Assembly: GCA_963837735.1 (NCBI GenBank)
Contig: CAWIOM010000010.1
Coordinates: 210,917-274,916, forward strand
Reading direction: 5' to 3'
Source: an uncultured Solirubrobacterales bacterium
GTDB lineage: Bacteria > Actinomycetota > Thermoleophilia > Solirubrobacterales > 70-9
Length of the DNA stretch: 64,000 bases
A program made the position numbers and the translations under genes. The notes beneath the pieces were generated by a model. The model ran no database searches and had not been told where the DNA came from. It saw nothing but the letters and a program-made list of their open reading frames with translations. Of the stretch, positions 30,489 through 63,175 are shown piece after piece. Position 1 is the first letter of the stretch; the number at the start of each line of letters is the position of its first letter.

Positions 30489-30656
30489 CTATTCGGTGTT
30501 CTTGGAGACCAGGTCCTTGAATTCTTCAACCACCTTGTCGACCGTTTCGCCGGCGACTTCGGTCGCCCGCACCCCGGTCGCCTTGTCGGTGGTGACGATC
30601 ACGGCGGTGGCGACGGCGGCGGCGATCAGGACGAGGGCGACCAGCGCCAGCATCAT
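30489..30656 (-). CDS. 55-aa single-TM ORF (MMLALVALVLIAAAVATAVIV...); may be the detached C-terminal anchor of the upstream kinase
   Basis: I translated this by hand (it is below the ORF-track cutoff). Its ATG overlaps the kinase TGA (ATGA). The frame stays open and Arg-rich far upstream of the Met. Confidence 0.35.
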   Translation of the reverse strand: MMLALVALVLIAAAVATAVIVTTDKATGVRATEVAGETVDKVVEEFKDLVSKNTE

Positions 30657-31717
30657 TCGCACGAAGCGCGAGAAGGCGCTGCGCCTGGCCGGCTTTCGCC
30701 GGCGGCGCGACGGGCGGCGGCGCCTGGCGCTGCGCAGCCCGCGCGGCCGGGCGCCGGGTCTGCGAGGGCGCCGGCCTGAACTCGGTCTGGCCGGTGCCGG
30801 GGTCGAGGCGCCGAGTCGGCGGTCTCGCCGCCGATGACGCTGGTCGGGGTCGCCCCCTCCTCCAGCGGCAGGGTCACGTCCTCGCCCTGCAGGCCTCGCT
30901 GCAGGCCGCCGGCGAGTTCGTCGGCGCTGGCGTAGCGCCGCGAAGGGTCTCCCTCCAGCGCTCGCAGGACAGCGGCGCCGAGGGTCTCCGGGACCTCGTC
31001 GTTGTAGGTGGTGGGCGGAAGAGGCCGGTCGTTCTGCTGGCGCACTGCAAGCTCGGCGAGCGTCGACCCCTCGTAGGGAAGCCGCCCGGTGAGGAACTGG
31101 TAGAGGACGACGCCGAGCGCGTAGACGTCGGTCGCCGGCGTCGCCTCCTCGCCCCGCACCTGCTCGGGCGCCAGATAGGCGGCGGTGCCGACCACCGAGC
31201 CGACCTGCGTTATCCGCGTCTGCTCGAGTGCGCGTGCGATCCCGAAGTCGGTCAGCTTCACCGTCATCTCGCCGCCACCCACCGGGCCGCCGACGATCAT
31301 CAGGTTGCCGGGCTTTACGTCGCGGTGGATGATCCCGCGACGGTGCGCATAGTCGAGGCCGGCACAGGCCTGGGCGCCGGCCTCGGCCGCCGTCTGCGGG
31401 CCGATCGGCCCCTGGCGCTGGAGGATCTGCGCCCCCGAGCGGCCCTCGACGTACTCCATGACGATGTAGTGGCGGTGCTCGTCGATGCCGGTGTCGTAGA
31501 CCTGGACGATGTTGGGGTGGATCAGCTTCGCCACCGCCAGCGCCTCGCGGCGGAAGCGGGCAACGAAGCGCTCGTCGTCAGAGAGGTGCTCGGCGAGGAT
31601 CTTGACGGCGACCGTCCGCTCCAGTGTCAGGTCGGTCGCCTTGTAGACGTTCGACATCCCCCCGGAGCCGAGCCGGTCGCCGAGCTCGTAGCGGCCAGAG
31701 AGGGTCCCGCCCGCCAT
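30653..31717 (-). CDS. Ser/Thr protein kinase (PknB-like catalytic domain)
   Basis: ATG at 31715-31717. Motifs: GSGGMSNVYKA, VAVK, HRDVKPGN, DFGIA and APE. Confidence 0.9.
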   Translation of the reverse strand: MAGGTLSGRYELGDRLGSGGMSNVYKATDLTLERTVAVKILAEHLSDDERFVARFRREALAVAKLIHPNIVQVYDTGIDEHRHYIVMEYVEGRSGAQILQRQGPIGPQTAAEAGAQACAGLDYAHRRGIIHRDVKPGNLMIVGGPVGGGEMTVKLTDFGIARALEQTRITQVGSVVGTAAYLAPEQVRGEEATPATDVYALGVVLYQFLTGRLPYEGSTLAELAVRQQNDRPLPPTTYNDEVPETLGAAVLRALEGDPSRRYASADELAGGLQRGLQGEDVTLPLEEGATPTSVIGGETADSAPRPRHRPDRVQAGALADPAPGRAGCAAPGAAARRAAGESRPGAAPSRASCE

Positions 31718-32275
31718 CAGCCGCCTTCTCCCGTCGCGGCGCCGGGGCCGATCCCGCCCGAGGGGCCGCCTTCTTCTTCGGCGGGTGGGGCTTCTTCGTT
31801 GCCTTTGCCTTCGCCCGACGGTTCCGGAGGTTTGACCTGTTCTTCTTCCGCGGGCGGCGTTGCTTCGGGCTCGACCTTCTTCGGCTTCTTTTCCTTCTTG
31901 CTCTTCTTTTCCGACTCTTCTTCGCTGCCTTCGGTCGTTTCCGGCAGGGTTTCTTCGGCGCTGGTGACTTCGCTTTCCTGGCAGTCGGCGACGACTTCGT
32001 TGAGGCGGGCCGCCCCGTCTCGCAGCAGTTCCTTCAGCTTCGGGTCGATTCCCTGCAGCGCTTCCACCTCGGTGGCGACCTGGAGCGCCGCGTCCTGGGC
32101 GTCGATGCATTCGCCTTCGTCGACGAGCTCTCGGACCGTGTCGAGGTTTTCGCCGATTTCCTGCGCCGTGTTGCCCGGCAGCAGCTTTGCGTCGCTCCCC
32201 CCGCAGGAGGCGAGGGCGAGGGACGCGGACGAGGCCGATCGCGAGCGCGATCGCGGCTGCGGCTAGGCGGGCCAT
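31717..32275 (-). pseudogene. acidic, Glu/Lys/Pro-rich lipoprotein (frameshift between the signal n-region and the lipobox, near 32225)
   Basis: MARLAAAAIALAIGLV is in one frame. ASLALASCGGSDAKLLPGNTAQEIGENLD...EEESEKKSKKEKKPKK is in the next. The stop overlaps the kinase start (ATGA). Confidence 0.55.
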
Positions 32276-33110: not shown

Positions 33111-34778
33111 ATGAGGCCCGATCTGGCGATTTCGATGACAACCGACTCGGTAACAGAGCTGCGCGAAGCGGTCAGCCGCGCGACCCGGGCCCTCCGCGAG
33201 GGGGAGCCGAGCGGGCCCGTGCCGTCACTCGACCGGCCGCCGAAGCCGGAGTTGGGCGATTACAGCTCCAATGCCGCGATGCTGCTCGCGGCGCCACTCG
33301 GGGAAAACCCGCGCGACGTCGCCGGCCGCCTCGGCGCGGAGCTCGAGCGCGACCTCGGAGAGAGCGACAGCCTCGAGCGGATCGAGGTCGCCGGCCCCGG
33401 CTTCGTCAACCTCTTCCTCGCCGACTCCTGGTATCGGCGGGCGATGACGCGCCTGGCCGAGTCCGGCCAGGCGCTCGGGCCCGCTCGCACCGACTCGCCC
33501 GAACGGATCCTGGTCGAGTTCGTCTCCGCCAACCCGACCGGACCGCTGCACGTCGGCGGCGGCCGCCACGCCGCCTACGGCGACGCGCTCGTGCGCCTGC
33601 TCGAGGCGGTCGGCCACGACGTCGGGCGCGAGTACTACGTCAACGACGGTGGCGGACAGATCGAGCGCTTCGCGCTCTCGATCGCAGCCCGCATGACCGG
33701 CGGCGAGCCCCCCGACGACGGGTACACGGGCGACTACGTCGCCGAGCTGGCCGCCGAGCTGGCCGCCGCCGGCATCGACCCGGGTGACACAGAGGCGGTC
33801 GGCGCCCGTGGGGTCGAGCTGGTCCTCGACCGCGTCCGCGCAACCCTCGATCGCTTCGGCGTCCACTTCGACACCTGGTTCCACGAGCGCGACCTCTATC
33901 GCAGGGGCGAGGTCGAGAAGGCGCTGGCACGGCTCGAGGAAGGGGGCCATTCCTACCGGAGCGACGACGCCCTCTGGCTGCGGACGACGGACTTCGGCGA
34001 CGACAAGGATCGGGTTCTCGTCCGCGCCAACGGCGAGCCGACCTACCTCGCCGCGGACGTCGCCTATCACTGGGACAAGCTCGAGCGCGGCTTCGGCAGG
34101 CTGGTCGACGTGCTCGGCGCCGATCACCACGGCTACGCCACCCGGGTGCGCGCCGCGATCGCCGGCCTCGGCGCCGACCCCGATTCCTTCGAGGCTCTGA
34201 TCATGCGCCTCGTCCACATCGTCGAAGGCGGCGAGCGCTCGCAGATGTCGAAGCGCAGCGGCGACTTCGTCTCTCTCGACGAGCTGCTCGACGACATCGG
34301 CGTCGACGCGAGTCGCTGGTTCATGCTCTGGCGCAGCCACGACACGACCGTGGACCTCGACCTCGACCTCGCCCGCCGCGAGTCGAGCGACAACCCCGTC
34401 TACTACGTCCAGTACGCCCACGCCCGGATCGCGAGCATCCTCCGCAAGGCCGGCGGCGAGGCCCCCGACGCAGCCCTCGCGGCCGGGGCAGCGACCCCCG
34501 ACACGCCTCTCGAGCCCGCCGAGAAGGCGCTGGTCAAGCGCCTGCTCGAGTTCCCCGATGAGGTGCGCGAGGCCGCCGAGCGTCGCGCCCCGCACCGGAT
34601 CTGCGCCTACTCGACGGCGGTCGCCGCCGACTTCCACGCCTTCTACCGGGACTGCCAGGTGGTCGGCGCCGAGGGCGAGGGCGTCGAGGGCTCGCGGGTC
34701 GCCCTCTGCCTGCTGACCAAGAGAACCATCGCCAACGCCCTCGGCCTGCTGGGCATCTCGGCGCCGGAGCAGATGTGA
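33111..34778 (+). CDS. argS: arginine--tRNA ligase (alternative start 33135)
   Basis: SANPTGPLHVGGGRH (HIGH region), MSKRSG (KMSK-like) and a C-terminal anticodon-binding domain. Confidence 0.95.
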   Translation: MRPDLAISMTTDSVTELREAVSRATRALREGEPSGPVPSLDRPPKPELGDYSSNAAMLLAAPLGENPRDVAGRLGAELERDLGESDSLERIEVAGPGFVNLFLADSWYRRAMTRLAESGQALGPARTDSPERILVEFVSANPTGPLHVGGGRHAAYGDALVRLLEAVGHDVGREYYVNDGGGQIERFALSIAARMTGGEPPDDGYTGDYVAELAAELAAAGIDPGDTEAVGARGVELVLDRVRATLDRFGVHFDTWFHERDLYRRGEVEKALARLEEGGHSYRSDDALWLRTTDFGDDKDRVLVRANGEPTYLAADVAYHWDKLERGFGRLVDVLGADHHGYATRVRAAIAGLGADPDSFEALIMRLVHIVEGGERSQMSKRSGDFVSLDELLDDIGVDASRWFMLWRSHDTTVDLDLDLARRESSDNPVYYVQYAHARIASILRKAGGEAPDAALAAGAATPDTPLEPAEKALVKRLLEFPDEVREAAERRAPHRICAYSTAVAADFHAFYRDCQVVGAEGEGVEGSRVALCLLTKRTIANALGLLGISAPEQM

Positions 34779-35425
34779 AGCCGATCGCCGAGATCAGAGG
34801 GCGATCCCGCGACAGGGTCCGGGCCGGAACCCTGGGCCGCGGCGACCTCGATGCCTTCGCCGGCATGCTCGAGAGGATCGGCGACGGCGCGATCGTCGTC
34901 ACCGGGGCCGGCGAGGGTCGCCTCGCGGTCTCGACGGGGCTGGCCACCGTCGCCGCCGCCTCGGGGTCGCGCACCGCGGTGGTCGACTGCGACCTCGAGG
35001 AGCCGACCCTCGCCGGCGCCCTCGGCCTCGCCGAGCAGCCGGGGCTGCACGAGTACCTGCGGGCGGAAGCGAAGGCCGGCGAGATCCTCCAGCCACTCGT
35101 GCTCGCCGGGCCCGCATCCGAGGGGGCGAGCGACCCTCTCGTCTGCATCGCCGCCGGCTCCCCGGCTCCCGAGGGCAAGGTGCCGATCGATTCGCCGGAC
35201 TTCAGCCATGCGGTGGCAAAACTGCGCAGCGGCTACGACCTCGTCGTCCTCCACGGCCCGCCGCTCGGGGACGACACCGGCGCCCTGCAGGCCGCGACGG
35301 CCCGCGCCGATCTGGTGCTGGCCTGCGTCGGGCCCTCGCTGACCTCGGGCCGCGCCGGGCGCCGGCTGAAGAAGTCGCTCGGCCGCCTCCCGGGCGGCAC
35401 CGTCGAGGTCGTCGTCTACGGCTGA
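34775..35425 (+). CDS. BY-kinase/ParA-like P-loop fold protein with degenerate Walker motifs
   Basis: GTG overlaps the argS stop (GTGA). VVTGAGEGRLAVSTGLA replaces GEGKST, DCDLEEP resembles Walker A', and LVVLHGPP replaces the Walker B Dxxp. Confidence 0.55.
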   Translation: MKPIAEIRGRSRDRVRAGTLGRGDLDAFAGMLERIGDGAIVVTGAGEGRLAVSTGLATVAAASGSRTAVVDCDLEEPTLAGALGLAEQPGLHEYLRAEAKAGEILQPLVLAGPASEGASDPLVCIAAGSPAPEGKVPIDSPDFSHAVAKLRSGYDLVVLHGPPLGDDTGALQAATARADLVLACVGPSLTSGRAGRRLKKSLGRLPGGTVEVVVYG

Positions 35426-35442: not shown

Positions 35443-35928
35443 TCAGAGGTCGTAGCGGGCGATGTCGGCGTCGAGCCGTTCGGCGTCCTCGGCCGCCGGC
35501 GTCGCTGCCGCCGTCGAGCCGCCGGAGCCGCCGCCGCCCCTGCGGCGCCAGCGAGCGACGCCGATCGCCAGGGCCGCCGCGCCGAGCAGGAAGGCGATCG
35601 CCGGCACCAGATAGGCGGAGAGGTTGAAGCCCGAGCCCTCGGGCAGCGCCAGCACCTGGGGGCCGTATTCCTCGACGAGCGCGTCCTTGATCTCCGCCTT
35701 GCTCCTGCCGGCCGCGATCATCTCGGCGATGAAGGCCTTCTCGCGACGTGCCTGGGGCGAGTCGGAGAGCTCGAGCAGGGTGCCGCAGATCGTGCACATG
35801 ACCTCGTCTTCGACGTCGGCGATGTTGACCCGCGGGGTCGGGGAGGCGGGCTGCGCGGCGGCGGGCGCGGCGCAGGCGGCCGACGCCGCCGCCAGCAGAC
35901 AGGCGAGGACCGCGGCTCTCGCCTTCAC
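35443..35928 (-). CDS. ccmH: cytochrome c-type biogenesis protein CcmH
   Basis: GTG start at 35926-35928, then a signal peptide. MCTICGTLLELSDSPQA (CXXC) is followed by a TM helix. Confidence 0.75.
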   Translation of the reverse strand: MKARAAVLACLLAAASAACAAPAAAQPASPTPRVNIADVEDEVMCTICGTLLELSDSPQARREKAFIAEMIAAGRSKAEIKDALVEEYGPQVLALPEGSGFNLSAYLVPAIAFLLGAAALAIGVARWRRRGGGGSGGSTAAATPAAEDAERLDADIARYDL

Positions 35929-36443
35929 GATCCTTCGACGATCGGGTCGACGCTTTCGTGGAGGAAGCGTTCGTCGACCACCCCGCGCCAGATCAGCGCC
36001 AGCCTGCCCCGCGGGTTGACGAGGAAGTTCTCCGGCACGCCGCTCGAGCCGAAGGCGTCGCTGCGCTCGTTGCCGACCGAGCGGAGCTGCGGGTAGGTGA
36101 TCTTGAGCTCGTCGACGAAGGCGAGCGCGTCCTCGCTGTTGTCCTGGACGTTGATCCCGAGCACCGTCGCCCCGTCGTCGCGGTGCTCGCGCCACCAGCG
36201 CTCGAGCGCCGGCGCCTCCTCGCGGCAGGGCAGGCACCAGGAGGCCCAGAGGTTGACCAGCACCCATTCGCCGCGATAGTCGGCGATCTCGCCCTCGCCC
36301 TCGCCGCCGAGAACGGGCAGTGGCGTGTCGGGGACCGGGTCGCCGACGGCGATCGTGGCCGTGCCCTTGCTGAGCAGCCCGAAAACGAGCAGGCCGATCA
36401 CGGCGCAGACGGCGAGGAAGACGAAGAAGGTTCGGGCGCTCAC
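35925..36443 (-). CDS. ccmG: thiol:disulfide oxidoreductase of the TlpA/ResA/DsbE (CcmG) family
   Basis: N-terminal TM anchor. WASWCLPCREE is a thioredoxin CXXC motif. Overlaps the ccmH start by 4 nt. Confidence 0.8.
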   Translation of the reverse strand: MSARTFFVFLAVCAVIGLLVFGLLSKGTATIAVGDPVPDTPLPVLGGEGEGEIADYRGEWVLVNLWASWCLPCREEAPALERWWREHRDDGATVLGINVQDNSEDALAFVDELKITYPQLRSVGNERSDAFGSSGVPENFLVNPRGRLALIWRGVVDERFLHESVDPIVEGS

Positions 36444-36494: not shown

Positions 36495-36567
36495 GCGGAC
36501 GTAGCTCAGTTGGTAGAGCGCGAGCTTCCCAAGCTCGAGGTCGCGGGTTCGACCCCCGTCGTCCGCT
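36495..36567 (+). tRNA. tRNA-Gly (anticodon CCC)
   Basis: I folded the cloverleaf by hand. Acceptor GCGGACG/CGTCCGC, D arm GCTC..GAGC, anticodon stem CGAGC/GCTCG with loop TTCCCAA, and T loop GGTTCGACC. Confidence 0.9.
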
Positions 36568-36856
36568 TATCGGGGCGATCCCCGTTGGGGCCACGGCCGT
36601 TGCCGTGGTCGACGAGGCTGTAGAAGTGCTCGGTGGCGCCGCGGACCTGGCGCTGTCTGGTCAGCTCGATCAGGTCGGACCTGACCAGCTCGGTGACGTG
36701 GTAGTTGACGTTGCTGAGCGGGACGCGGAGCTCGTAGCTGAGGTCGCTGGGGGAGAGGGTGCGCCCGCCGTCGATCGCAAGCGCTTCCAGGACTGAGATT
36801 CGAAGGGGGTGCGTGTTTGCCCGAGCCAGTCGCTGCCAATCCATTCGTGCCTCCAT
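36506..36856 (-). CDS. ArsR-like winged-helix transcriptional regulator
   Basis: THPLRISVLEALAIDGGRTLSPSDLSYELRVPLSNVNYHVTELVRSDLIE. The 3' 60 nt run antisense through tRNA-Gly. Confidence 0.6.
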   Translation of the reverse strand: MEARMDWQRLARANTHPLRISVLEALAIDGGRTLSPSDLSYELRVPLSNVNYHVTELVRSDLIELTRQRQVRGATEHFYSLVDHGNGRGPNGDRPDKRTTGVEPATSSLGSSRSTN

Positions 36857-36867
36857 CGATGCGTGGT

Positions 36868-37002
36868 TACCCGATCCGGTGCCTAGCTACCCCGATACCT
36901 AAAAATTCTACCGCAACTCATTAAAATCGGGTACAGTCCCGCATCAGGGATTTAGGAAAGGGTTCCAGATGGGTAGGCAAACCGACATCCGCAATGGGTA
37001 GG
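36868..37002. promoter_or_regulatory. cluster of GGGTA/TACCC motifs in the AT-richer ArsR/giant-paralogue divergent promoter
   Basis: TACCCGAT (36868-36875), TACCCCGAT (36888-36896), ATCGGGTA (36926-36933), and ATGGGTAGG at 36969-36977 and 36994-37002. Confidence 0.3.
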
Positions 37003-37010
37003 AGATCGAC

Positions 37011-39897
37011 ATGAACGCAGGCCCCCGGCGCCTCCTCGCCGCCTTGACCGCAGTGCTCGCCGCGGCCGTCCTCGCCCCCTCTGCTGCGGCCAACACCGAA
37101 GACATCATCGCTCCCTCGAGCCCTCCCTACACCCCCTCGAGCGGCTGGCAGGCGGGGACCTGCACGGCCGACGCGCCGGTCTGCTCCGTCGCGACCCCGG
37201 GCCAGTTCTTCGAAAACGCCGCCGGCCACCCGCAGGTCGGCTTCACCCAGTTCATCGTCCGCAATCATCCAGGCTCGCTCGGGCCGATCCTCTCGCCCGA
37301 AGAACCGATCGGCGAACTGAAGACCGTCCACGTCGACCTCCCGGTGGGCCTCAGCGTCAACCCGCAGGCGACCCCCCAGTGCCCGACCGCAACCGGCGAA
37401 TCGAACCCCGGATCCTGCCCGGCGAACACCAAAGTCGGCCAGAGTCAGATCACGGGCTCCGTACTCGGGGTGGTCTCGCCGACGACGATCGACGCCGACG
37501 TCTACAACATCGAACCGCCGGCGGGCGAGCCGGCGCTGTTCGGCTTCAGCATCGCGGGAGCGGCCAACGTCTTCCTGCGCGCCGAGGTTTCCTGGGACGG
37601 CGACTATCACGAGGGGTTCACGATCGCCGTGCCGCCGCTGCCGATATCGGGGATCCTCCCCGGCGGCCTGATCCTCAAGAACCGCCTCGTCTTCGACGGC
37701 CGCTCCGGCGACGGCACCTTCATCACCACGCCCTCGACCTGCTTCGACCCGGAAACCGACGCGGGCAAGGAACAGGTCTACTCGACATGGCTCCAGGCCT
37801 CCTCGATCGAAGAAGAGGAAGACCCCGGATACCAGTTCCCGGCCAGTGCCGAACCGCGGCTCGAGTCGCCTCTGCCGCCGGGCAAAAAGCCGATCGACTG
37901 CGCCAACATCCCCTACGAGCCCTCGGCGGACGTCGACCCCGGCAACTCACGGCAACCGACTCGCCTTCGGGGGCCACCACCGAAGTCGAGGTGCCCCACA
38001 TCCTCGGCGGCGGCGAAAGCGAGAGCTCGAACACCCGAGAGGCGCGGGTCGCCCTGCCGGCCGGGCTCGGTCTCAACCCCGCGGCGGGCGCCGGGCTCGT
38101 CGCCTGCACCGACTCGGAGTTCGGCAAGGGCACGAAGGCTCCGGTCGCCTGCCCGCCGGGCTCGAAGATCGGCACGGTCGAGATCAAGACCCCGCCGCTG
38201 CGCGAATCCGACGGGACCCTCGAAGGAGACGTCTTCGTCGGCACCCAGCTCAGCCGCGACCCCGCCTCCGGGCGACGAGTACCGGATCTTCGTCGACGCC
38301 GAGTCGGCGCGCTACGGAATCTCCGTGCGGCTTCTCGGCCGGGTCAGCGCCGACCCGGTCAGCGGGCAGCTGACGACCCGCTTCGAAGGTCTGCCGCAGG
38401 TCCCCTTCAGCTCCTTCGTGCTGAAGCTGGACGGCGGCCCGCGGGCGACGCTGACCAGTCCCGCGACCTGCGGCCCGCACCGCATGGTCGCGACAATGAC
38501 CCCCTGGTCGGGAAACCCGGCCGCGACCCCGTCGAGCGAGTTCACCCTGACCTCGGCGCCCGGGGGAGGCGCATGTCCGCCGACGCTCGGCGAGCGGCCC
38601 TTCGCACCGGGGTTCGAAGCGCGCGCGTCCGATACCCGGGCCGGCGGCTTCACCGACCTCGGCATAGACGTCGCCCGCAGCGAGGGCGACCAGGAGCTGA
38701 AGGGGGTCGAGGTCACGCTGCCGCCGGGGATGACCGCGAAGCTCGCCGGCCTGCGCTACTGCCCGGAGGAGGCGATCGCCGCCGCGGCCGCCAACGGCGG
38801 GCTCGCCGAGGCCGCGGCCCCAGCTGTCCCGGCGACAGCCTCGTCGGCAGCGCGGCGATCACAGCCGGAAGCGGCCCCGAGCCCCTTCACATCGACTCCG
38901 GCAAGGCCTTCCTCGCAGGCCCCTACCACGGGGCGCCGCTGTCCCTGGCGGTGATCACCCCCGCCACGGCCGGGCCGTTCGACCTCGGCACGGTCGTGGT
39001 GCGGGTGGCGCTGTTCGTGGACCCGGCGACAGCCCAGGTGAGGACGGTGACCGACCCGCTTCCCCACGTCTACGGCGGCGCTCCTTCTCGACGTGCGCAC
39101 GGTCGCGGTTGAAGATCGACCGCCCCGGCTTCTCGCTGAACGGGACCAACTGCGACCCGTCGGCGTTCGCCGGCACCCTGCACGGCGGCGGCTCGAACCC
39201 CGACGACCCGGCGTCGTTCAGCTCCGTCACCGCCTCCTCGCCCTATCAGGCGTCGGGCTGTGACGCGCTTCCCTTCGGCCCGCGGCTGTACCTCAGGTTC
39301 TTCGGCGCGACGAAGCGGGCGAAGAACCCGAAACTGCGGGCGATCCTGCTCGCCAGGCCCGGCGACGCGAACATCTCGCGCGCCGCGGTGACTCTGCCGA
39401 AGTCGGTGATCCTCGATCAGGCGAGCATCGGCCGCGTCTGCACGCGGGTCCAGTTCGACGCCGGCGAGTGCCCGTCGAACTCGGTCTACGGCTTCGCCGA
39501 AGCCGACTCGCCACTGCTCGACGGGCCGCTCAAAGGGCCGGTCTACCTGCGCTCCTCGAACAACACCCTGCCGGACCTCGTCGCCGCCCTGCACGGCCAG
39601 GTCGACATCGAGCTGGCGGGCCGCACCGACACCGTCCGCGGCCGGATCCGCAACACCTTCGACACCGTGCCCGACGTCCCGGTCTCGCGCTTCGTGCTGA
39701 CGATCAGGGGCGGCAAGAGGAGAGGCCTGCTCGTCAACACGCAGAACCTCTGCGCCCGCAGGCAGTTCGCGAGGCTCGACCTCAACGCGCAGAACGGCAG
39801 GAGCCTGACCAAGAAGCGGTTGAAGATCCGCAAGCCCTGCCGGAGGAAGCGCCGCCACGGCCGCCGCACCCACCACAGCCGCCACCGGGCCGGCTAG
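37011..39897 (+). pseudogene. large secreted Cys-rich four-repeat protein, unknown family, paralogue 1 (five frameshifts as sequenced)
   Basis: Signal peptide: RRLLAALTAVLAAAVLAPSAAA. The pieces lie in ORFs 37011-38954, 37379-39112 and 39109-39897 and align end to end with paralogue 2. Junctions are near 37948, 38271, 38818, 39078 and 39105. Confidence 0.7.
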
Positions 39898-39906
39898 GCA
39901 GATTCG

Positions 39907-42752
39907 ATGACAGGCAGGATGGGTAGACGCCCAGACATGGCGAGGAAGCTCCTATGTGCGGGGATCACCTGCCTCTGCTTCGCAGGGGTTGGGGGGCCGG
40001 CGTCCGCGGCGGCCGACACCGGCGACATCATCGCGCCGCAGAACGACCCCGCCGACTCGGCCGACGGCTGGCAGGCGGGGACCTGCAAATCCGAACCGTG
40101 CTCGCCCGAAACTCCGGAAGCGTTCTTCACCCAGGCTGCCGGGCACCCGCCGATCGGCTTCACCCAGTTCATCACCAAGGACGGCGCCGGCATCGGCATC
40201 GACCCGGTCGGCGTCCTCAAGGACATCAGGGTCGATCTCCCCACCGGCCTCAGCGTCAACCCGCAGGCCACGCCGCAGTGCGACCTCGGCACCTTCCAGG
40301 AAGGGGCCGCGGGCTGTCCCGGCCGGCTCTGTCGTCGGCCTCAGCCTGATCACGCTCGCCGTCGCCGGGCTGCCGGTCGGACCGGTCCCTGCCCAGGTCT
40401 ACAACTTGGTCCCGAGCCAGGGGGAACCGGCCCTCTTCGGCTTCGAAGCGGCCGGCGCCGAGGTCTACCTGAAGGCCGACGTGGCGTGGAGCGGCGACTA
40501 CCACGAGGGCTTCACGATCGCCGTGCCGGAACCGCCGGCCGGGCGGCTCTACGTCAACCGGCTGGTATTCACCGGGGTCGCCGGCAACGGAACCTTCCTG
40601 ACCACTCCCAGCACCTGCCGCAACCCCGCCGAGGCGGAGTTCGCCCACACATACTCGACCTTTCTCCGGGCCGACTCGGTCGAGGTCCCCGACTCGGGCT
40701 TCCCGAGCGGCTCGACCCCGTTCGAGGCGTTGCTGCCGCCGGGCGTCAAGCCGACCGGCTGCGACGCGGTGCCGTTCAAACCGAAGCTCACCGTCTCGCC
40801 CGGGACCGACCGCACCGACTCTCCGGCCGCCGCCGTCGTCGCGGTCGACGTCCCCTTCGAGCCGCCCGAACCGCTCGCCAACTCCAACGTGAGGACGGCG
40901 CGGACGGCCCTGCCGGCGGGGATGGGCCTCAATCCCTCGGCGGCCGAGGGCCTGGTTGCCTGCACCGACGCCCAGCTGGGCAAGGGGAAGACGGCTCCCG
41001 TCGCCTGCCCGGCGGCCTCGAAGATCGGCACGGCCTCAATCGAGACCCCGCCCCTTCCCTCCGGCTCGCTCAGCGGCGACGTCTATCTCGGTCAGCAGCT
41101 CAGCCGCGACCCCGCCTCCGGCGACGAGTACCGGATCTTCGTCGACGCCGAGTCCGCTCGGTACGGGGTCTCCGTGCGGCAGATCGGCCATGTCAGCGCC
41201 GATCCCGTCACCGGGCAGCTGACGGCGACCTTCGCCGAAGCGCCCCAGGTCCCGTTCAGCTCGTTCGTGCTGCGCTTCGACGGCGGTGACCGGGCGCCGC
41301 TGACGAGCCCGGGGCTCTGCGGGCCGAGCCGGTCGAACCTCGCCGCCGATCCCTATACCGAGACGGCGACCGCCGAATCCTTCAACGACTTCACCCTGAC
41401 CAGCGCCCCCGGCGGCGGCTCCTGCCCGGCCACGCTCGCCCAGCGGCCGTTCAACCCCGGGTTCACCGCCAAGGCGAAGAGCGCCAAGGCCGGCGCCTAC
41501 AGCCCCTTCTCGGTGTACCTGCACCGCAGCGACGGCCAGCAGGAGTTGAAGGTGGTCGACGTGACGCTGCCCGCCGGCGTCAGCGGCAAGCTCAAGGGAG
41601 TTCCCTACTGCCCGGCCGGGAAGATCGCCGCCGCCGCCGACCGCGCCGGCGAAGCCGAGGCGAAGAACCCCAGTTGCCCCTCGAAGAGCCGTGTCGGAGC
41701 GGCGACGATCCGCGCCGGCAGTGGCGGCTCGCCGATCAAGATCACCGGCAAGGCGTACCTGTCGGGGCCCTACAAAGGCGCTCCTCTTTCCCTGGCGGTG
41801 ATCACCCCGGCCGTCACCGGGCCGTTCGACCTTGGCACCGTCGTCGTCCGCGTCGCCCTCTTCGTCGACCCGGACACGGCGCGGATCCGGCCGTACTCGG
41901 ACGTCATCCCCGACGTCTACGGCGGCGCCAAGCTCGACATCCGCTCGATCTTCGTCAACGCCAACAAGGGGCGCTTCACGGTCAACCCGACCAGCTGCGG
42001 GGCCCTGCGTAGCGAAGGGCGTGTCCTGGGAGGCGGCGGCGACCCGGCGAGGGAATCCCATTTCAGCTCCCATCCGGTCAGCGACGGGTTCCAAACCTCG
42101 GACTGTCGCTCGCCCGGCTTCCGGCCGCGCCTCTTCACCCGCATCCTCGGCCGCCGCGGAGCCGCTCGCCGGACGAGGAACCCCAAGTTCCGGGCCGTGC
42201 TGCTCGGCCGCGACGGCGACGCCAACCTGCGCCGGGCGACCGTGGTCCTGCCGCGCGCGGTGATCCTCGACCAAAGCCACATCAAGACGATCTGCACCCG
42301 CCCCCAACAGGCAACCGGCAGCTGCCCGAAGGGCTCGATCTACGGTCATGCCGCCGCCTTCTCGCCACTGCTCGGCAAGCCCCTGCGAGGCCGCGTCTAC
42401 CTCGTCCCGTCAACCCACACGCTGCCCGACCTGCTCGTCGACCTCGGTGGTCAGGTCCACGTCCGGCTGCACGCGTCGGTCGACGCGGTCCGGGGCCGGA
42501 TGCGGACGACCTTCTACGCGGTCCCCCGACGTCCCGGTGAGCAAGTTCGTGCTGACGATGAAGGGCGGCGGCCGGGGCCTGCTCACCAACACCGCCGACC
42601 TCTGCGCGCGACGCCTGCGCTCGAAGGCGGTACTGCACGCGCAGAACGGGCGCCGCATCCAAAACAAGCACCTGAAGCTGCGGGTCCCCGCCTGCCGGCA
42701 CAAGGCGCGGCAGAGCCACAGGGCGGCGCGAGGCGGTCGGGCCGGGGCCTAG
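39907..42752 (+). pseudogene. large secreted Cys-rich four-repeat protein, unknown family, paralogue 2 (two frameshifts as sequenced)
   Basis: Signal peptide: KLLCAGITCLCFAGVGGPASAA. The bulk lies in the frame of ORF 39956-43579. Junctions are near 40320 and at the C5 run 42523-42527. The C-terminus is in ORF 42348-42752. Confidence 0.7.
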
Positions 42753-43462
42753 ATCGGCTGCTGCGTCGGCCGGATCAGGATCTCGTTGACGTCCACCCCC
42801 GGCGGCTGCTCGAGGGCGAACATCACCGCCCGGGCAATGTCGTCGTCGCGCAGCGCCCACTCGCCGGGCCGATTGTCGAAGAACGGCGTGTCGGTCATCC
42901 CCGGCTCGATCAGCGTGACCTTGATCTCGTTGCTGTCGTGCATCTGGCGCAGCTCCGCGCGCAGCGCCTCGCCGATTGCCGTCGTTGCCCACTTGGTCGC
43001 CGAGTAGAGCGACCCCGGCAGCACCCGGCGGCCGGCGATCGAGCTGGTGACGATGAAATGGCCGTCGCCGCGCTCGAGCAGGTGGGGGAGGGTGGCGCGG
43101 ATCGTCAGGGCGACGCCGTAGACGTTCGTCAGGACCATCGAGCGCCAGTGCTCGACCGACTCCTCGAGGAAGCCCCGGGTGGCGCCGAAGCCGGCATTGG
43201 CGAAGACGGCGTCGATGCGCCCGAAGCGCTCGATCCCGGTCGCCGCCATCGCCTCGACCTCGTCCCACTCGGTGACGTCGCAGCGGACGGCGATCGCCCG
43301 CTCCTCGCCGCCGAGCTCAGCGGCGAGCTGCTCGAGGGCGTCGAGGCTGCGCGCGGCCAGAACCAGCCGATAGCTCCCGGCAGCCGCGCGCGCAGTCGCG
43401 GCGCCGATGCCACTGCTCGCCCCGGTGATCAGCAGCACAGGACTGTTTGCGCTCGGGGTCAT
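42749..43462 (-). CDS. short-chain dehydrogenase/reductase (SDR)
   Basis: TGASSGIG, NAG and YSATKWA motifs. ATG at 43460-43462. Confidence 0.9.
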   Translation of the reverse strand: MTPSANSPVLLITGASSGIGAATARAAAGSYRLVLAARSLDALEQLAAELGGEERAIAVRCDVTEWDEVEAMAATGIERFGRIDAVFANAGFGATRGFLEESVEHWRSMVLTNVYGVALTIRATLPHLLERGDGHFIVTSSIAGRRVLPGSLYSATKWATTAIGEALRAELRQMHDSNEIKVTLIEPGMTDTPFFDNRPGEWALRDDDIARAVMFALEQPPGVDVNEILIRPTQQPI

Positions 43463-43579: not shown

Positions 43580-43982
43580 TTGGCGACCGTGGACCCGCAG
43601 CGCAAACGCAAGATCCGACTGGTCGTCGCCCTCAGCGTCGCGGTGCTGCTCGCCGTGGCACTCGTATACACGTCGTTCAGCGCTTCGACCGAGGCGAAGG
43701 AGCCCTCGGAACTGGTCAATGCGACCCCCGGCACCAGCGCCGAGATGACCGGCAAGGTCGTCAAGGGGTCGGTCGAGCGCGAAGGCAGCGACCTCTCCTT
43801 CGAGGTCGCCGATCGCGACGGCCACGGCGAGAGCATCCCGGTCACATACAGCGGCATCGTCCCCGACCCCTTCCGCGGGGGTCGCGAGATCGTTCTCAGC
43901 GGCGAGGTCGAGCACGGAACCTTCGTCGGCGAGCGGGACACGCTCGTCACCAAGTGCCCGTCGAAGTTCACGACGACGACGA

Positions 43983-43993
<11 letters not shown>
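43580..43993 (+). CDS. ccmE: cytochrome c maturation haem chaperone CcmE, Cys-type variant
   Basis: TTG start (GTG at 43589 is also possible), then an N-terminal TM anchor. IVPDPFRGGREIVLSGEV aligns with E. coli ILPDLFREGQGVVVQGEL. The haem-binding HDENY position reads CPSKF. Confidence 0.85.
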
Positions 43994-46339
<2,346 letters not shown>

Positions 46340-46343
<4 letters not shown>

Positions 46344-52439: not shown

Positions 52440-52931
52440 CTACCCCTGTTTGCCGTAGTAGACGACGAATCGCTGCCCGAAGCCGTGGCGCTCGTAGAAG
52501 CGCTGGGAGTCGACGTTGCTCGTCGTCGTGGTGATCGCGATCTCGTCGACGCCGATCTCCGCGAGGCGTCCCCGGACCGCGCCGAGCAGGGCGCTGCCCA
52601 CACCGGAGCCCCGACTTTCCGGGAGGACGGAGAGCGTCTCCAGCTCGGCCAGGCGATCCCCGGTCGCCCAGGACGCGTAACCGGGCCCGACTGTGACGAA
52701 CGCATACCCGACCTGTCCCTCGTCCTCTTCCGCGAGGGCGAAGAAGGAGTCGGGCTCGAGCAGCCATCGCTCGTATTTCGTCCGCCGCCTGGCCCATGCC
52801 TCCGACGGGGCACGCGCCGGGGTCCCGGCGGCGAGGCTCGGGGTGATCCGCGCGTGGTGCTCCTGGAGCGCGTTCCAGAGGGGCTCGAGCAGGTCGAGCT
52901 CGCCGGCGTCGGAGCTGAGACGGACGATCAC
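52440..52931 (-). CDS. GNAT-family N-acetyltransferase
   Basis: GTG start overlaps the upstream stop (GTGA). LSVLPESRGSGVGSALL. Confidence 0.75.
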   Translation of the reverse strand: MIVRLSSDAGELDLLEPLWNALQEHHARITPSLAAGTPARAPSEAWARRRTKYERWLLEPDSFFALAEEDEGQVGYAFVTVGPGYASWATGDRLAELETLSVLPESRGSGVGSALLGAVRGRLAEIGVDEIAITTTTSNVDSQRFYERHGFGQRFVVYYGKQG

Positions 52932-53509
52932 CGATCGAGCCGGCGGCGAAGGTTGTCGCGCACGGCGGGCCACTCGGCGTCGATCACGCTGTAGTAGGCG
53001 GAGTCGCGCAGGCCGACGTCGGGGAGGATCATGTGGTTGCGGAGCACACCCTCGAACTGGGCCGGGATCGCGGCCAGCGCCGCCCGCGAGCGCTCGTTGC
53101 GGGCGTCGGTCTTGAACTCGACCCGGACGCACTCGAGCGTCTCGAAGGCGTGCTCGAGCATCAGCAGCTTGGCCTCGACGTTGGCGCCCGTCCGCCAGGC
53201 CCGGGGGTTGAGCCAGGTCCAGCCGATCTCGACGACCCTGTCGGCGGGGCGGACGTTGAGGTAGCGGCTGCTGCCGACCGCCGCCCCGGAGGCGCGCTCG
53301 CGGGTCAGGAACGGGCCCTCGGTGCCCGCCCGAACCGCCTCGAAGGTCAGCTCGAGCCAGAGATCGAAGCGCTCGGGCTCGTTGAGGTTTGCCAGCCAGT
53401 CCCAGATCTCGGGCGCCTGGGCCGGCTCGCGGAGCTGATCGGCGTTCTCCTCGGTGAGCGGCTCGAGGACGACGATCGATCCCTCGAGCCGTTTGGTCAG
53501 CGGCTGCAT
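52928..53509 (-). CDS. GNAT-family N-acetyltransferase (RimJ/RimL-like)
   Basis: 193-aa ORF with IGWTWLNPRAWRTGANVEAKLLMLEHAFE. Confidence 0.8.
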   Translation of the reverse strand: MQPLTKRLEGSIVVLEPLTEENADQLREPAQAPEIWDWLANLNEPERFDLWLELTFEAVRAGTEGPFLTRERASGAAVGSSRYLNVRPADRVVEIGWTWLNPRAWRTGANVEAKLLMLEHAFETLECVRVEFKTDARNERSRAALAAIPAQFEGVLRNHMILPDVGLRDSAYYSVIDAEWPAVRDNLRRRLDR

Positions 53510-61231: not shown

Positions 61232-61317
<86 letters not shown>

Positions 61318-62044: not shown

Positions 62045-62139
62045 CGCGGCCGCCGGCGCCCGGTGCCGGCGTGCTGCAAGGCGGCGGCCGTCGGCTGCCC
62101 GGGGTTGCGGTCGCAGGGACAGGAGCTACCATCGGCGAT

Positions 62140-62465
62140 GCGGGCCGAGCGACCGCGGGGGGAGAGAAAACCCCTCGAGGAAAGTCCGGACACCGAAGGG
62201 CGAGGCGGTGGGTAACGCCCACCCGGGGAAACCCGCGGGAAAGTGCCACAGAAACACACGGCCGATGGCGCGGTTGCACGTGCGTCGCGCACAGGCAAAG
62301 GTGAAATGGTGCGGTAAGAGCGCACCGGCGCCGCGGTGACGCGGCGGCCAGGCAAACCCCGCCCGGTGCAAGGCCAAGCAGGACCGTCGACCCTGCCCGG
62401 CGAGGTCCAGGTAGGCCGCATAGATAGATGGCCGCTCACGACAGGATCCGGCTTACAGGCCCGCT
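62140..62465 (+). ncRNA. rnpB: RNase P RNA, bacterial class A (ends approximate)
   Basis: GAGGAAAGTCCGGAC, ACAGAAACACACGGC, GGTAAGAGCGCACC, GCAAACCCCGCCCGGTGCAAG and ACAGGATCCGGCTTAC. P1 pairs GCGGGCC with GGCCCGC. Confidence 0.9.
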
Positions 62466-62470
62466 AAAGG

Positions 62471-62494: not shown

Positions 62495-62569
62495 CATGTC
62501 CGGGGACCGCTCAAGCGTCGCCACCCGCGACCACTGCACCGTTTTCTGTCTTAGCGTTTGCTAACGTGC

Positions 62570-62705
62570 CGCCCTTCGCTGAATCTTCGCTCCTATGGCG
62601 CGGAGATCGGGGGACCCAATTCGTTGGGGCGAATCGCAGGCATCTGCCGCGTAGCGCAGCTCTTTCAGCGCGAGCCCGTCAGCTAACCCCGTAAGCGTCG
62701 CAAAG
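62570..62705 (+). promoter_or_regulatory. cyclic-di-AMP riboswitch (ydaO/yuaA class)
   Basis: CGCTGAATC, GGAGATCGGGGGACCCA, GGGGCGAATC and GCCCGTCAGCTAACCCCGTAAGCGT match the conserved ydaO blocks, directly upstream of ATG 62711. Confidence 0.85.
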
Positions 62706-62710
62706 AGAAG

Positions 62711-63175
62711 ATGAAGGAACGCACACACAGACGAGCATTCTTCGGCGCGCGCTGGGCGGCAATCCTCGCTGCCTGCGCCCTCGGCTTGGCCGTCTTCTCG
62801 GTGCCCGCCCAGGCTGAAACCGGCGGCGCCTCCAGCGGCGCGTCGTTCGAAGCGAATGCCGGCGGCGGATTCGCCTTCGCGGCCTTCCGTTCGGCCGGGG
62901 CCACCTGGTACGGCCCGGGCTTCTACGGCAAGAAGACGGCCTGCGGCCAGACCCTGCGCCGCGGCACGCTCGGCGTCGCCCACCGAAGGCTTCCCTGCGG
63001 CACGCCGGTCAAGTTCGTCTACCACGGGCGCCTGATCGTCACCCGTGTGATCGACCGCGGCCCCTACGCGAAAGGATTTGCCTGGGATCTGACCAACGGC
63101 GCCCGTGAGGCGCTCGGGTTCGAAGGCTCGGGCCGGATCCGCTTTGCAGTGGCGATGCGGTACGCGCGTCCTTAG
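62711..63175 (+). CDS. RlpA-like double-psi beta-barrel (DPBB) lytic transglycosylase-type secreted protein
   Basis: A signal peptide is followed by ATWYGPGFYGKKTACGQTL...VAHRRLPCGTPVKFVYHGRLIVTRVIDRGPY. Confidence 0.8.
   Translation: MKERTHRRAFFGARWAAILAACALGLAVFSVPAQAETGGASSGASFEANAGGGFAFAAFRSAGATWYGPGFYGKKTACGQTLRRGTLGVAHRRLPCGTPVKFVYHGRLIVTRVIDRGPYAKGFAWDLTNGAREALGFEGSGRIRFAVAMRYARP

Follow-up and report, generated by a model that had tools for sequence, protein, structure and literature searches.

Two tandem paralogues in an uncultured Solirubrobacterales bacterium belong to a large, unnamed family of predicted exported proteins with four disulfide-framed units

Two tandem genes, paralogue 1 (P1) and paralogue 2 (P2), were analysed on the + strand of a 64,000-nucleotide stretch of DNA (called the window here) from an uncultured Solirubrobacterales bacterium (contig CAWIOM010000010.1 of GenBank assembly GCA_963837735.1, positions 210,917 to 274,916 of the forward strand). 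An earlier sequence-only reading had placed two tandem paralogues at 37011-42752 and had anticipated that their reading frames would need correction. It was found that both genes lie there and that neither is a single open reading frame (ORF) in the window: three-frame translation, a frame plot of G+C content at third codon positions (GC3) and the DNA alignment of P1 with P2 located five frame breaks in P1 and two in P2. The corrected products of 961 and 947 amino acids (aa) were paralogous and could be aligned end to end with 56% identity (521 of 932 positions). The gene pair was divided as follows.

37011-39897, + strand: P1, 961 aa once corrected (three-frame reading and reconstruction)
37011-37091, + strand: P1 signal peptide, predicted cleavage between AAA and NTED
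37092-37904, + strand: P1 unit 1
37905-38579, + strand: P1 unit 2
38580-39264, + strand: P1 unit 3
39265-39843, + strand: P1 unit 4
39844-39894, + strand: P1 polybasic tail
39907-42752, + strand: P2, 947 aa counted from the ATG at 39907
ending at 40014, + strand: P2 signal peptide, predicted cleavage between AAA and DTGD
40015-40765, + strand: P2 unit 1
40766-41428, + strand: P2 unit 2
41429-42109, + strand: P2 unit 3
42110-42698, + strand: P2 unit 4
42699-42749, + strand: P2 polybasic tail

Comparison with homologues suggested that the true start of P2 is the ATG at 39937 (MARKLLCAG...) rather than that at 39907. All of the motifs quoted in the sequence-only reading were found in the corrected proteins (DIIAP, GWQAGTC, AAGHP.GFTQF, the LPxG starts, the CP..S.[IV]G hairpins and VP.VP.S.F.L..GG), and the shared stretch APLSLAVITPA..GPFDLGTVVVRVALFVDP was confirmed in the paralogues. 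Gene conversion was rejected as the origin of the near-identical peptide stretches, because third-codon-position identity there was about 0.55, equal to the background; the stretches therefore point to constraint at the protein level. The GC skew of the P1/P2 coding strand was strongly negative (-0.05 to -0.16; window 37000-43000) compared with the rest of the window, which presumably reflects a composition rich in Pro, Ala, Thr and Ser.

The two proteins had been described as a four-fold repeat framed by cysteines, and this description held. In the alignment of P2 with 51 homologues (52 members; alignment A1), 18 cysteines were invariant or nearly invariant, and P1 and P2 had all 18 at aligned positions. 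The Cys spacing suggested nine pairs, namely 60/65, 125/137, 237/285, 352/367, 471/506, 568/590, 697/733, 796/806 and 899/929. Across 323 copies of the domain, taken from 150 divergent relatives, the partners of a pair were almost always present together, and those of pair 60/65 were both present or both absent. Two pairs were common to every unit, a hairpin pair (C...CP..S.[IV]G) and a closing pair, and unit 1 had one extra pair. When a unit was taken to run from just past one closing Cys to the next (unit 1, 36-286; unit 2, 287-507; unit 3, 508-734; unit 4, 735-930), hhalign detected homology between units 2 and 4 (probability 97%, E 3.5e-11), units 1 and 2 (92%, E 7e-7), units 2 and 3 (88%, E 3e-6) and units 1 and 3 (60%, E 8.5e-5), and these four alignments were all co-linear and nearly full length. 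With the module boundaries proposed earlier, the profile-profile probability was 96% for one module pair and at most 72% for the others. The shared Cys pairs and the hhalign homology together indicated four repeated units of about 200-250 aa.

The sequence-only reading had also placed a signal peptide and a conserved head at the start of each protein. The signal peptide stood, whereas the head as a separate domain was rejected: it aligned with the segments between units and, because the repeat register runs from closing Cys to closing Cys, it forms the first third of unit 1. A Sec-type signal peptide was predicted on both paralogues, in agreement with the proposal that they are secreted. The N-terminus opened with a basic n-region, which led through a hydrophobic core to an Ala-X-Ala site; the conserved sequence (D/N)TGDIIAP came next. 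Residues 1-34 were poorly conserved and were modelled with a predicted local distance difference test score (pLDDT) below 50; conservation began at the predicted mature end. At the other end, the tail past the last Cys was rich in Lys, Arg and Gly, measuring 8-15 aa with a net charge of +5 to +8 in most close homologues, and having a median length of 16 aa and a net charge of +7 in divergent relatives. The C-termini of the two proteins, ...KLRVPACRHKARQSHRAARGGRAGA and ...KIRKPCRRKRRHGRRTHHSRHRAG, were made up of the charged tail alone, without LPXTG or a hydrophobic stretch, and so were those of the homologues. Internal LPTG/LPAG motifs were located at unit starts, where strands begin, and are not sorting signals. 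The isoelectric point (pI) of the mature protein was about 9. Both P1 and P2 thus show the features by which the family was provisionally defined, namely a signal peptide, four units with two Cys pairs each and a polybasic tail.

No family was found in Pfam for P1 or P2 at E ≤ 1, nor any recurrent family over the 52 members at E ≤ 10, and NCBIfam gave none for P2 at E ≤ 1. No sequence relative was found in the PDB, where the best matches (E 0.38 with the single sequence, 0.17 with the profile) were at chance level. A word-indexed search returned no fewer than 4,695 homologues. Intact proteins of about 930 aa that were 55-75% identical to P2 stood among the best 120, and within these 120 there were no precomputed Pfam domains, every named protein was called 'hypothetical', and the taxon, where given, was a Solirubrobacterales metagenome-assembled genome (MAG). 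A profile search run exhaustively over 1.84 billion cluster representatives gave 8,657 at E ≤ 0.001 (50%-identity clusters). The earlier statement that neither a catalytic nor an adhesin domain of known type was assignable was consistent with these searches, and the profile searches that it had recommended placed the repeats in no characterised family, while the periodicity survived frame correction. The family had further been called unknown and new. It is indeed unnamed, but it can be called new only with reservation, as the databases already hold thousands of 'hypothetical' members. On the sequence evidence, P1 and P2 are members of a large unnamed family of putatively exported proteins of the Solirubrobacterales (Thermoleophilia, Actinomycetota).

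Among divergent relatives, the family region extended to the C-terminus in 127 of 138, and 80 of 150 had more than 150 extra residues at the N-terminus. These N-terminal extensions, where identifiable, were FN3, Ig_2, NHL-propeller or DUF11-type repeats. Giant relatives (P0121-P0130; P0271, which is MBI4897769.1) of 3,400 to 7,167 aa contained 7-15 matched stretches of the region of units 2-4, which indicates that very long fibres can be assembled from the unit in other Actinomycetota. When the NHL-fused relative P0207 served as the seed of a homologue search, NHL-repeat proteins overwhelmed the hits and nothing was learned about taxonomy. Nothing relevant was found in the literature on S-layers (surface layers) or fimbriae of Thermoleophilia or Conexibacter.

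The genes were found at one locus in 79 GTDB species representatives, with the order ArgS, a 216-aa ORF (orf216), CcmH (-), a TlpA-like protein (-), a variable part, the HTH_20 regulator (-), one to three copies of the family, a family-2 glycosyltransferase (GT2) in some, SDR (-), CcmE and CcmF. The HTH_20 gene was directly upstream of the array in 68 of the 79 loci, and the oppositely oriented SDR gene separated the array from ccmE. Most related genomes had a third positionally conserved paralogue (about 1,000 aa) and then the GT2 gene (e.g. L001 12950-17047). The window lineage had two copies and lacked the third copy and GT2, as did loci L003, L004, L006, L007 and L010. In three-copy loci, the similarity across genomes was 0.60-0.68 for copies at the same position, compared with 0.41-0.46 for copies at other positions. 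Because each copy resembles the same-position copy elsewhere more closely, the paralogues appear to be old and non-redundant. In L001, a signal peptidase S26 gene was located just upstream of the regulator. In the window, CcmH and a TlpA/ResA-like thioredoxin were encoded at 35443-36443 (-) and CcmE and CcmF at 43580-46343 (+), so that the System I cytochrome c maturation genes were split around the cassette, an arrangement conserved across Solirubrobacterales. The 216-aa ORF at 34775-35425 (+), between argS and ccmH, was present in 41 of the 79 related loci and had no Pfam match.

Upstream of P1, the sequence-only reading had noted an ArsR-like regulator and an unusually AT-rich promoter. Both were recovered, and the features of this region were as follows.

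36506-36856, - strand: winged-helix regulator gene (ArsR-type, HTH_20), divergent from P1
36857-37010, + strand: intergenic promoter and P1 leader, AT-rich, 154 bp
36897-36937, + strand: motif ACC(T)AAAA-N22-TCGGG-TACAGT, with the -10-like TACAGT at 36932-36937
37000-37004, + strand: Shine-Dalgarno sequence GGAGA in the P1 leader

The regulator matched Pfam HTH_20 with E 1.5e-11 (above the gathering score) and MarR_2 with E 1.2e-6. Its last ~20 codons were overlapped on the opposite strand by tRNA-Gly(CCC) at 36495-36567 (+); the peptide at its C-terminus, ...GVEPATSSLGSSRSTN, therefore probably represents the antisense of the tRNA, kept only through conservation of the tRNA, and the regulator may in truth end earlier or have a mis-assembled stop. 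The 154 bp that separate the regulator from P1 had 52% G+C, compared with about 71% for the window. A motif consisting of ACC(A/T)AAAA, exactly 22 nt and TCGGG-TAnnnT was shared by 47 of the 69 intergenic regions compared, that of the window included. Most relatives had TTGAC/TT as the -35 element, 18 nt upstream of the -10 element, inside a TTGAT-N7-ATCAA inverted repeat. The A-tract upstream presumably resembles an UP element, and we take the inverted repeat to be a possible operator of the HTH_20 regulator. The P1 leader contained the direct repeat ATGGGTAGG twice, at 36969-36977 and 36994-37002, 25 nt apart (0.11 expected by chance). The second copy ran into the Shine-Dalgarno sequence, and a copy with one mismatch, ATGGGTAGA, was observed at 39918-39926, a short way ahead of the ATG at 39937 where P2 probably starts. 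A scan for consensus sigma-70 promoters and terminators gave no sites, and Rfam gave no RNA element in the P1 leader.

The AlphaFold2 model of P2, built with alignment A1, was all-beta, with a mean pLDDT of 86.9 and a predicted template modelling score (pTM) of 0.76. When the whole model was compared with the PDB by Foldseek, the best match was to the Ig-like domains of PrgB (8beg, E 5e-11, probability 1.0). The geometry of this match was weak, with a template modelling score (TM) of 0.16-0.19 and a root-mean-square deviation of 18.6 for 8beg (18-36 over the PrgB and integrin matches). Other matches of the whole model in the PDB were to integrin alpha legs, MG domains of alpha2-macroglobulin and mastigonemes, with TM of 0.1-0.19 overall. 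Against the BFVD viral library, generic DUF11 and FN3 arrays alone were matched (best E 3e-7, TM 0.10). Unit 2 modelled separately was also all-beta (pLDDT 76, pTM 0.76), and its top matches below threshold were to the p53/p73 core, MtrC barrels, Gram-positive pilins and CNA N2 (TM ≤ 0.35). As modelled, the fold of P1 and P2 is Ig-like in a generic sense only; the kind of protein, a predicted secreted beta-sandwich repeat, is familiar, and its unit is without a close solved relative.

These matches allowed the two proteins to be compared with known systems. PrgB (Enterococcus pCF10, 8beg; with antigen I/II-type C-terminal domains) is a secreted array of multiple beta-sandwiches forming a stalk, an organisation proposed for P1 and P2 as well, and, as in PrgB-type stalks, the module in relatives of P1 and P2 would sit between the cell and variable N-terminal heads. 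However, the identity to PrgB was 7-8%, which is no sequence similarity, and the TM reached only 0.16-0.19. Unlike PrgB-type adhesins, P1 and P2 lack an LPXTG sorting signal and a neighbouring sortase gene, are predicted to be held by conserved disulfides instead of isopeptide bonds, and repeat a unit of about 220 aa with its own Cys framework. Sortase-assembled pilins and MSCRAMM collagen adhesins (CppA, LrpA, CNA/CNM N2) share the all-beta, IgG-rev-like sandwiches and the extracellular location in Gram-positive bacteria, but the unit-level matches to them were not significant (TM 0.28-0.35, E ~1e-2), and P1 and P2 lack a pilin motif and a C-terminal cell-wall sorting signal. Sortase anchoring was rejected, as the motif is absent from the P1 and P2 sequences; among the called genes and Pfam hits at three related loci and in the window, no sortase gene was found.

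Actinobacterial DUF11/TIGR01451 proteins are, like P1 and P2, repetitive, secreted, all-beta and without an assigned function. One distant relative of P1 and P2 has DUF11 repeats at its N-terminus, and the best match in the viral library was a DUF11 protein. Nevertheless, none of the 52 members had a Pfam DUF11 hit at E ≤ 10, and the unit length and Cys framework differ. With Gram-positive S-layer proteins (SLH-anchored, or of the Corynebacterium PS2 type), P1 and P2 share large size, predicted Sec export and the lack of a catalytic domain, and the family occupies a fixed core locus with a conserved promoter, next to GT2 in three-copy loci. They differ in lacking SLH (PF00395), any other known anchoring domain and a hydrophobic C-terminal anchor, and in their basic pI, many S-layer proteins being acidic. 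For the two-dimensional lattice and very high abundance that mark S-layer proteins, the conserved promoter with its A-tract and the GT2 neighbour are at most indirect hints. The putative anchoring of P1 and P2 by a polybasic tail would thus differ from both sortase and SLH systems. Integrin alpha legs and the MG domains of alpha2-macroglobulin resemble the model at the level of fold, as serial beta-sandwiches (E 1e-6 to 1e-5), but the TM was at most 0.16, and P1 and P2 lack CGEQ, a beta-propeller and any sequence relation; these systems are themselves eukaryotic or periplasmic and have other functions. A thioester was rejected, since no Cys context in P1 or P2 is CGEQ.

The sequence-only reading had put the two proteins forward as candidate surface-layer, adhesin or fibre subunits, and candidates they remain, the modelled fold being Ig-like in a generic sense only. 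A surface role is most likely for P1 and P2, judging from an architecture of signal peptide, predicted disulfides, polybasic tail and a module that is C-terminal under variable heads. It is proposed that transcription would start from the conserved promoter with its upstream A-tract, under control of the divergent HTH_20 regulator, and that the Sec-type signal peptide would be cut at the Ala-X-Ala site, exposing the N-terminus (D/N)TGDIIAP. Outside the cell, each protein may fold into four homologous all-beta units of the Ig-like sandwich type, each stapled by a hairpin disulfide and a closing disulfide, with the extra pair of unit 1 making nine pairs in all. Directly past the last Cys, the protein would end in a Lys/Arg/Gly-rich tail of about 10-20 residues, which may hold it on the anionic Gram-positive envelope. 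The four-unit body would then be a rigid, cell-proximal stalk or coat element, and the tandem paralogues, ancient and positionally conserved, could work together as non-redundant subunits. The position of the module at the C-terminus, below variable FN3, Ig or NHL heads in relatives, leads to this reading as an envelope stalk or coat.

We give roughly even, or slightly shorter than even, chances to this proposal, in which the body is a stalk or coat retained by the tail, the paralogues act together and relatives display N-terminal heads on the module. Several observations weigh against it. Neither P1 nor P2 carries a recognised anchor (LPXTG sorting signal, SLH domain, lipobox or transmembrane segment), and the possible role of the tail as a tether to wall or membrane is deduced from its charge alone. 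The two proteins also have no N-terminal head to display. In the Foldseek comparison of unit 2 alone with the PDB, there was no match at E ≤ 0.001 and the best TM was 0.35; because a single unit has no significant match, the analogy to a stalk is weak at the domain level. The window lineage, moreover, lacks the -35 hexamer of most relatives. A bolder version is that the paralogues are the main cell-coat proteins (S-layer-like or fibrillar) of small-genome soil Solirubrobacterales, forming a new kind of Gram-positive surface layer of disulfide-stapled units of about 220 aa, tethered by polybasic tails in place of SLH domains or sortase, with the module serving as a universal head anchor or stalk in relatives. 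This we consider unlikely.

Other functions were weighed against a stalk or coat. P1 and P2 might be released, soluble extracellular proteins, acting either as binding proteins or as enzymes whose active site has escaped recognition. Such a role would fit a signal peptide without a canonical anchor, the clustering of several invariant polar residues in unit 1 (e.g. W55-Q56, H80, H199-E200) and the fusion of the module in relatives to NHL propellers, which often bind ligands. However, the invariant positions of alignment A1 were mainly Gly, Pro, Cys and hydrophobic residues, as is typical of a scaffold, and the four units are all homologous sandwiches. The polybasic tail is conserved across the family, the giants string together as many as 15 matched stretches over 7,161 aa, as fibres rather than enzymes typically do, and no likeness to any catalytic fold appeared in the Foldseek searches. 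Soluble proteins are therefore, in our judgement, a rather doubtful explanation. It is very improbable that the cassette has a functional link to the cytochrome c maturation genes on either side of it, for example by serving as a redox or haem scaffold outside the cell. Dozens of genomes keep it between ccmH-tlpA and ccmE-ccmF, and single units gave weak matches to the beta-barrel domains of MtrC and OmcA (E 4e-3 to 1e-2), but the MtrC matches were not significant, all cysteines are accounted for by the conserved pairs, and the array is served by a promoter and a regulator of its own and is parted from ccmE by the opposite SDR gene. The haem-binding motif CXXCH was absent from both corrected proteins, and haem binding was rejected. 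An origin from a prophage or mobile element, with P1 and P2 as tail-fibre or receptor-binding proteins, is scarcely credible: the weak Foldseek matches of phage fibre, FN3 or DUF11 type (best E 3e-7, TM 0.10) are outweighed by a syntenic core-genome locus flanked across the order by argS, ccm genes and secG, which effectively refutes it. In addition, there were no integrase or phage genes nearby, the composition equalled that of the genome, and the signal peptides and disulfides indicate a host-exported protein.

A further question was whether the seven frame breaks belong to the assembly or to the organism. Their positions were as follows.

37945-37954, + strand: P1 break 1, two bases extra or one missing compared with the intact orthologue
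38268-38273, + strand: P1 break 2, one base extra in CCTCCGGGC, by alignment with P2 and L003
38817, + strand: P1 break 3, one base missing, GCG-GCCCC vs GCGAGCCCC
39082-39083, + strand: P1 break 4, one base extra
39109-39111, + strand: P1 break 5, T extra, GGTTGAAG vs GG-TGAAG
40317-40324, + strand: P2 break 1, one base extra; the hairpin once corrected reads CPAGSVVG
42523-42527, + strand: P2 break 2, C extra in a C run, CCCCC vs CCCC

The sister locus L003 (MAG MFD05684.bin.2.67), with 83-89% DNA identity and identical gene order, had intact orthologues of P1 and P2, with ORFs of 970 and 939 aa. Relative to these orthologues, six of the seven breaks were single-base indels, and two of the seven lay in short homopolymer runs. 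It is most likely that all seven are consensus errors of the assembly, perhaps worsened by strain heterogeneity. Because a chimeric 647-aa ORF is in public databases (it was present, as was the thioredoxin-like protein of the window, in NCBI and ENA), the breaks belong to the deposited assembly. The closest relatives of the window came from the Microflora Danica project, whose MAGs are Nanopore-only assemblies with one round of Medaka polishing (PMC12313526). Among related loci, 4 of 92 complete copies in long-read MAGs were frame-broken and 0 of 90 in short-read MAGs, a contrast that is suggestive but not significant. In L002 (3388-5860), from another ENA metagenome assembly, the first paralogue was called as two fragments of 515 and 318 aa and the second was intact, which fits recurrent frame errors of the family in long-read assemblies. 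Two unrelated genes of the window were also frame-split, at ~30492-31747 (-), with the break near 30.7 kb, and at ~52449-53509 (-), near 52.95 kb; both were single ORFs in related genomes, and the frame-breaking indels are therefore not confined to P1 and P2. No independent assembly of the same population was found in two exact-match scans of metagenome contigs.

If the breaks were instead genuine, P1 and P2 would be recently inactivated pseudogenes, a surface protein pair lost by frameshift decay. What speaks for decay, and against errors of assembly, is that the breaks were clustered: seven of nine fell within 5.7 of the 21.9 kb checked, with two in the ~16 kb of other coding sequence (binomial p 0.002), and random sequencing error alone would not predict such a concentration. 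The presence of the frameshifted 647-aa product in the public protein collection, which puts the breaks in the deposited assembly, and the earlier loss from this lineage of a third copy and a GT2 gene that most relatives possess could be read in the same way. On the other hand, no in-frame stops, deletions or losses of conserved residues were observed. Of the 140 alignment columns unvarying among the 51 database homologues, P1 kept 139 and P2 kept 138, the median for intact family members being 99.3%. The identity to the intact L003 orthologues (79-89% per segment for P1, 83% for P2) matched that of the flanking housekeeping genes. Together with the predominance of single-base indels and the restriction of family frame breaks to long-read MAGs, this makes inactivation distinctly unlikely. 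With assembly errors as the preferred explanation, one practical consequence is that automatic annotation of the frame-broken genes yields fragments, the public chimeric ORF among them.

Elsewhere in the window, other features were observed:

61232-61317, - strand: a further tRNA
62137-62468, + strand: bacterial RNase P RNA class A, 198 bits (Rfam)
62567-62712, + strand: c-di-AMP (ydaO-type) riboswitch, 89 bits, 100 nt past the RNase P RNA

Solirubrobacterales are among the commonest soil Actinomycetota and are mostly uncultured; to our knowledge, nothing is known of their cell surface. Secreted Gram-positive surface proteins made of multiple beta-sandwiches are already known as a kind, while the P1/P2 family itself is undescribed: it is large and conserved, and in a dominant soil lineage it carries no annotation at all, with no unusual mechanism yet in view. 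With 8,657 cluster representatives, a fixed core locus, no entry in Pfam or NCBIfam and no solved sequence relative, it represents a sizeable 'dark' exported proteome, which can now be defined by its unit boundaries, nine-disulfide framework and polybasic tail. If the proteins do form an envelope coat or a general display stalk, they would offer a handle on the surface biology of these bacteria, on their phage receptors and on the isolation of their cells.

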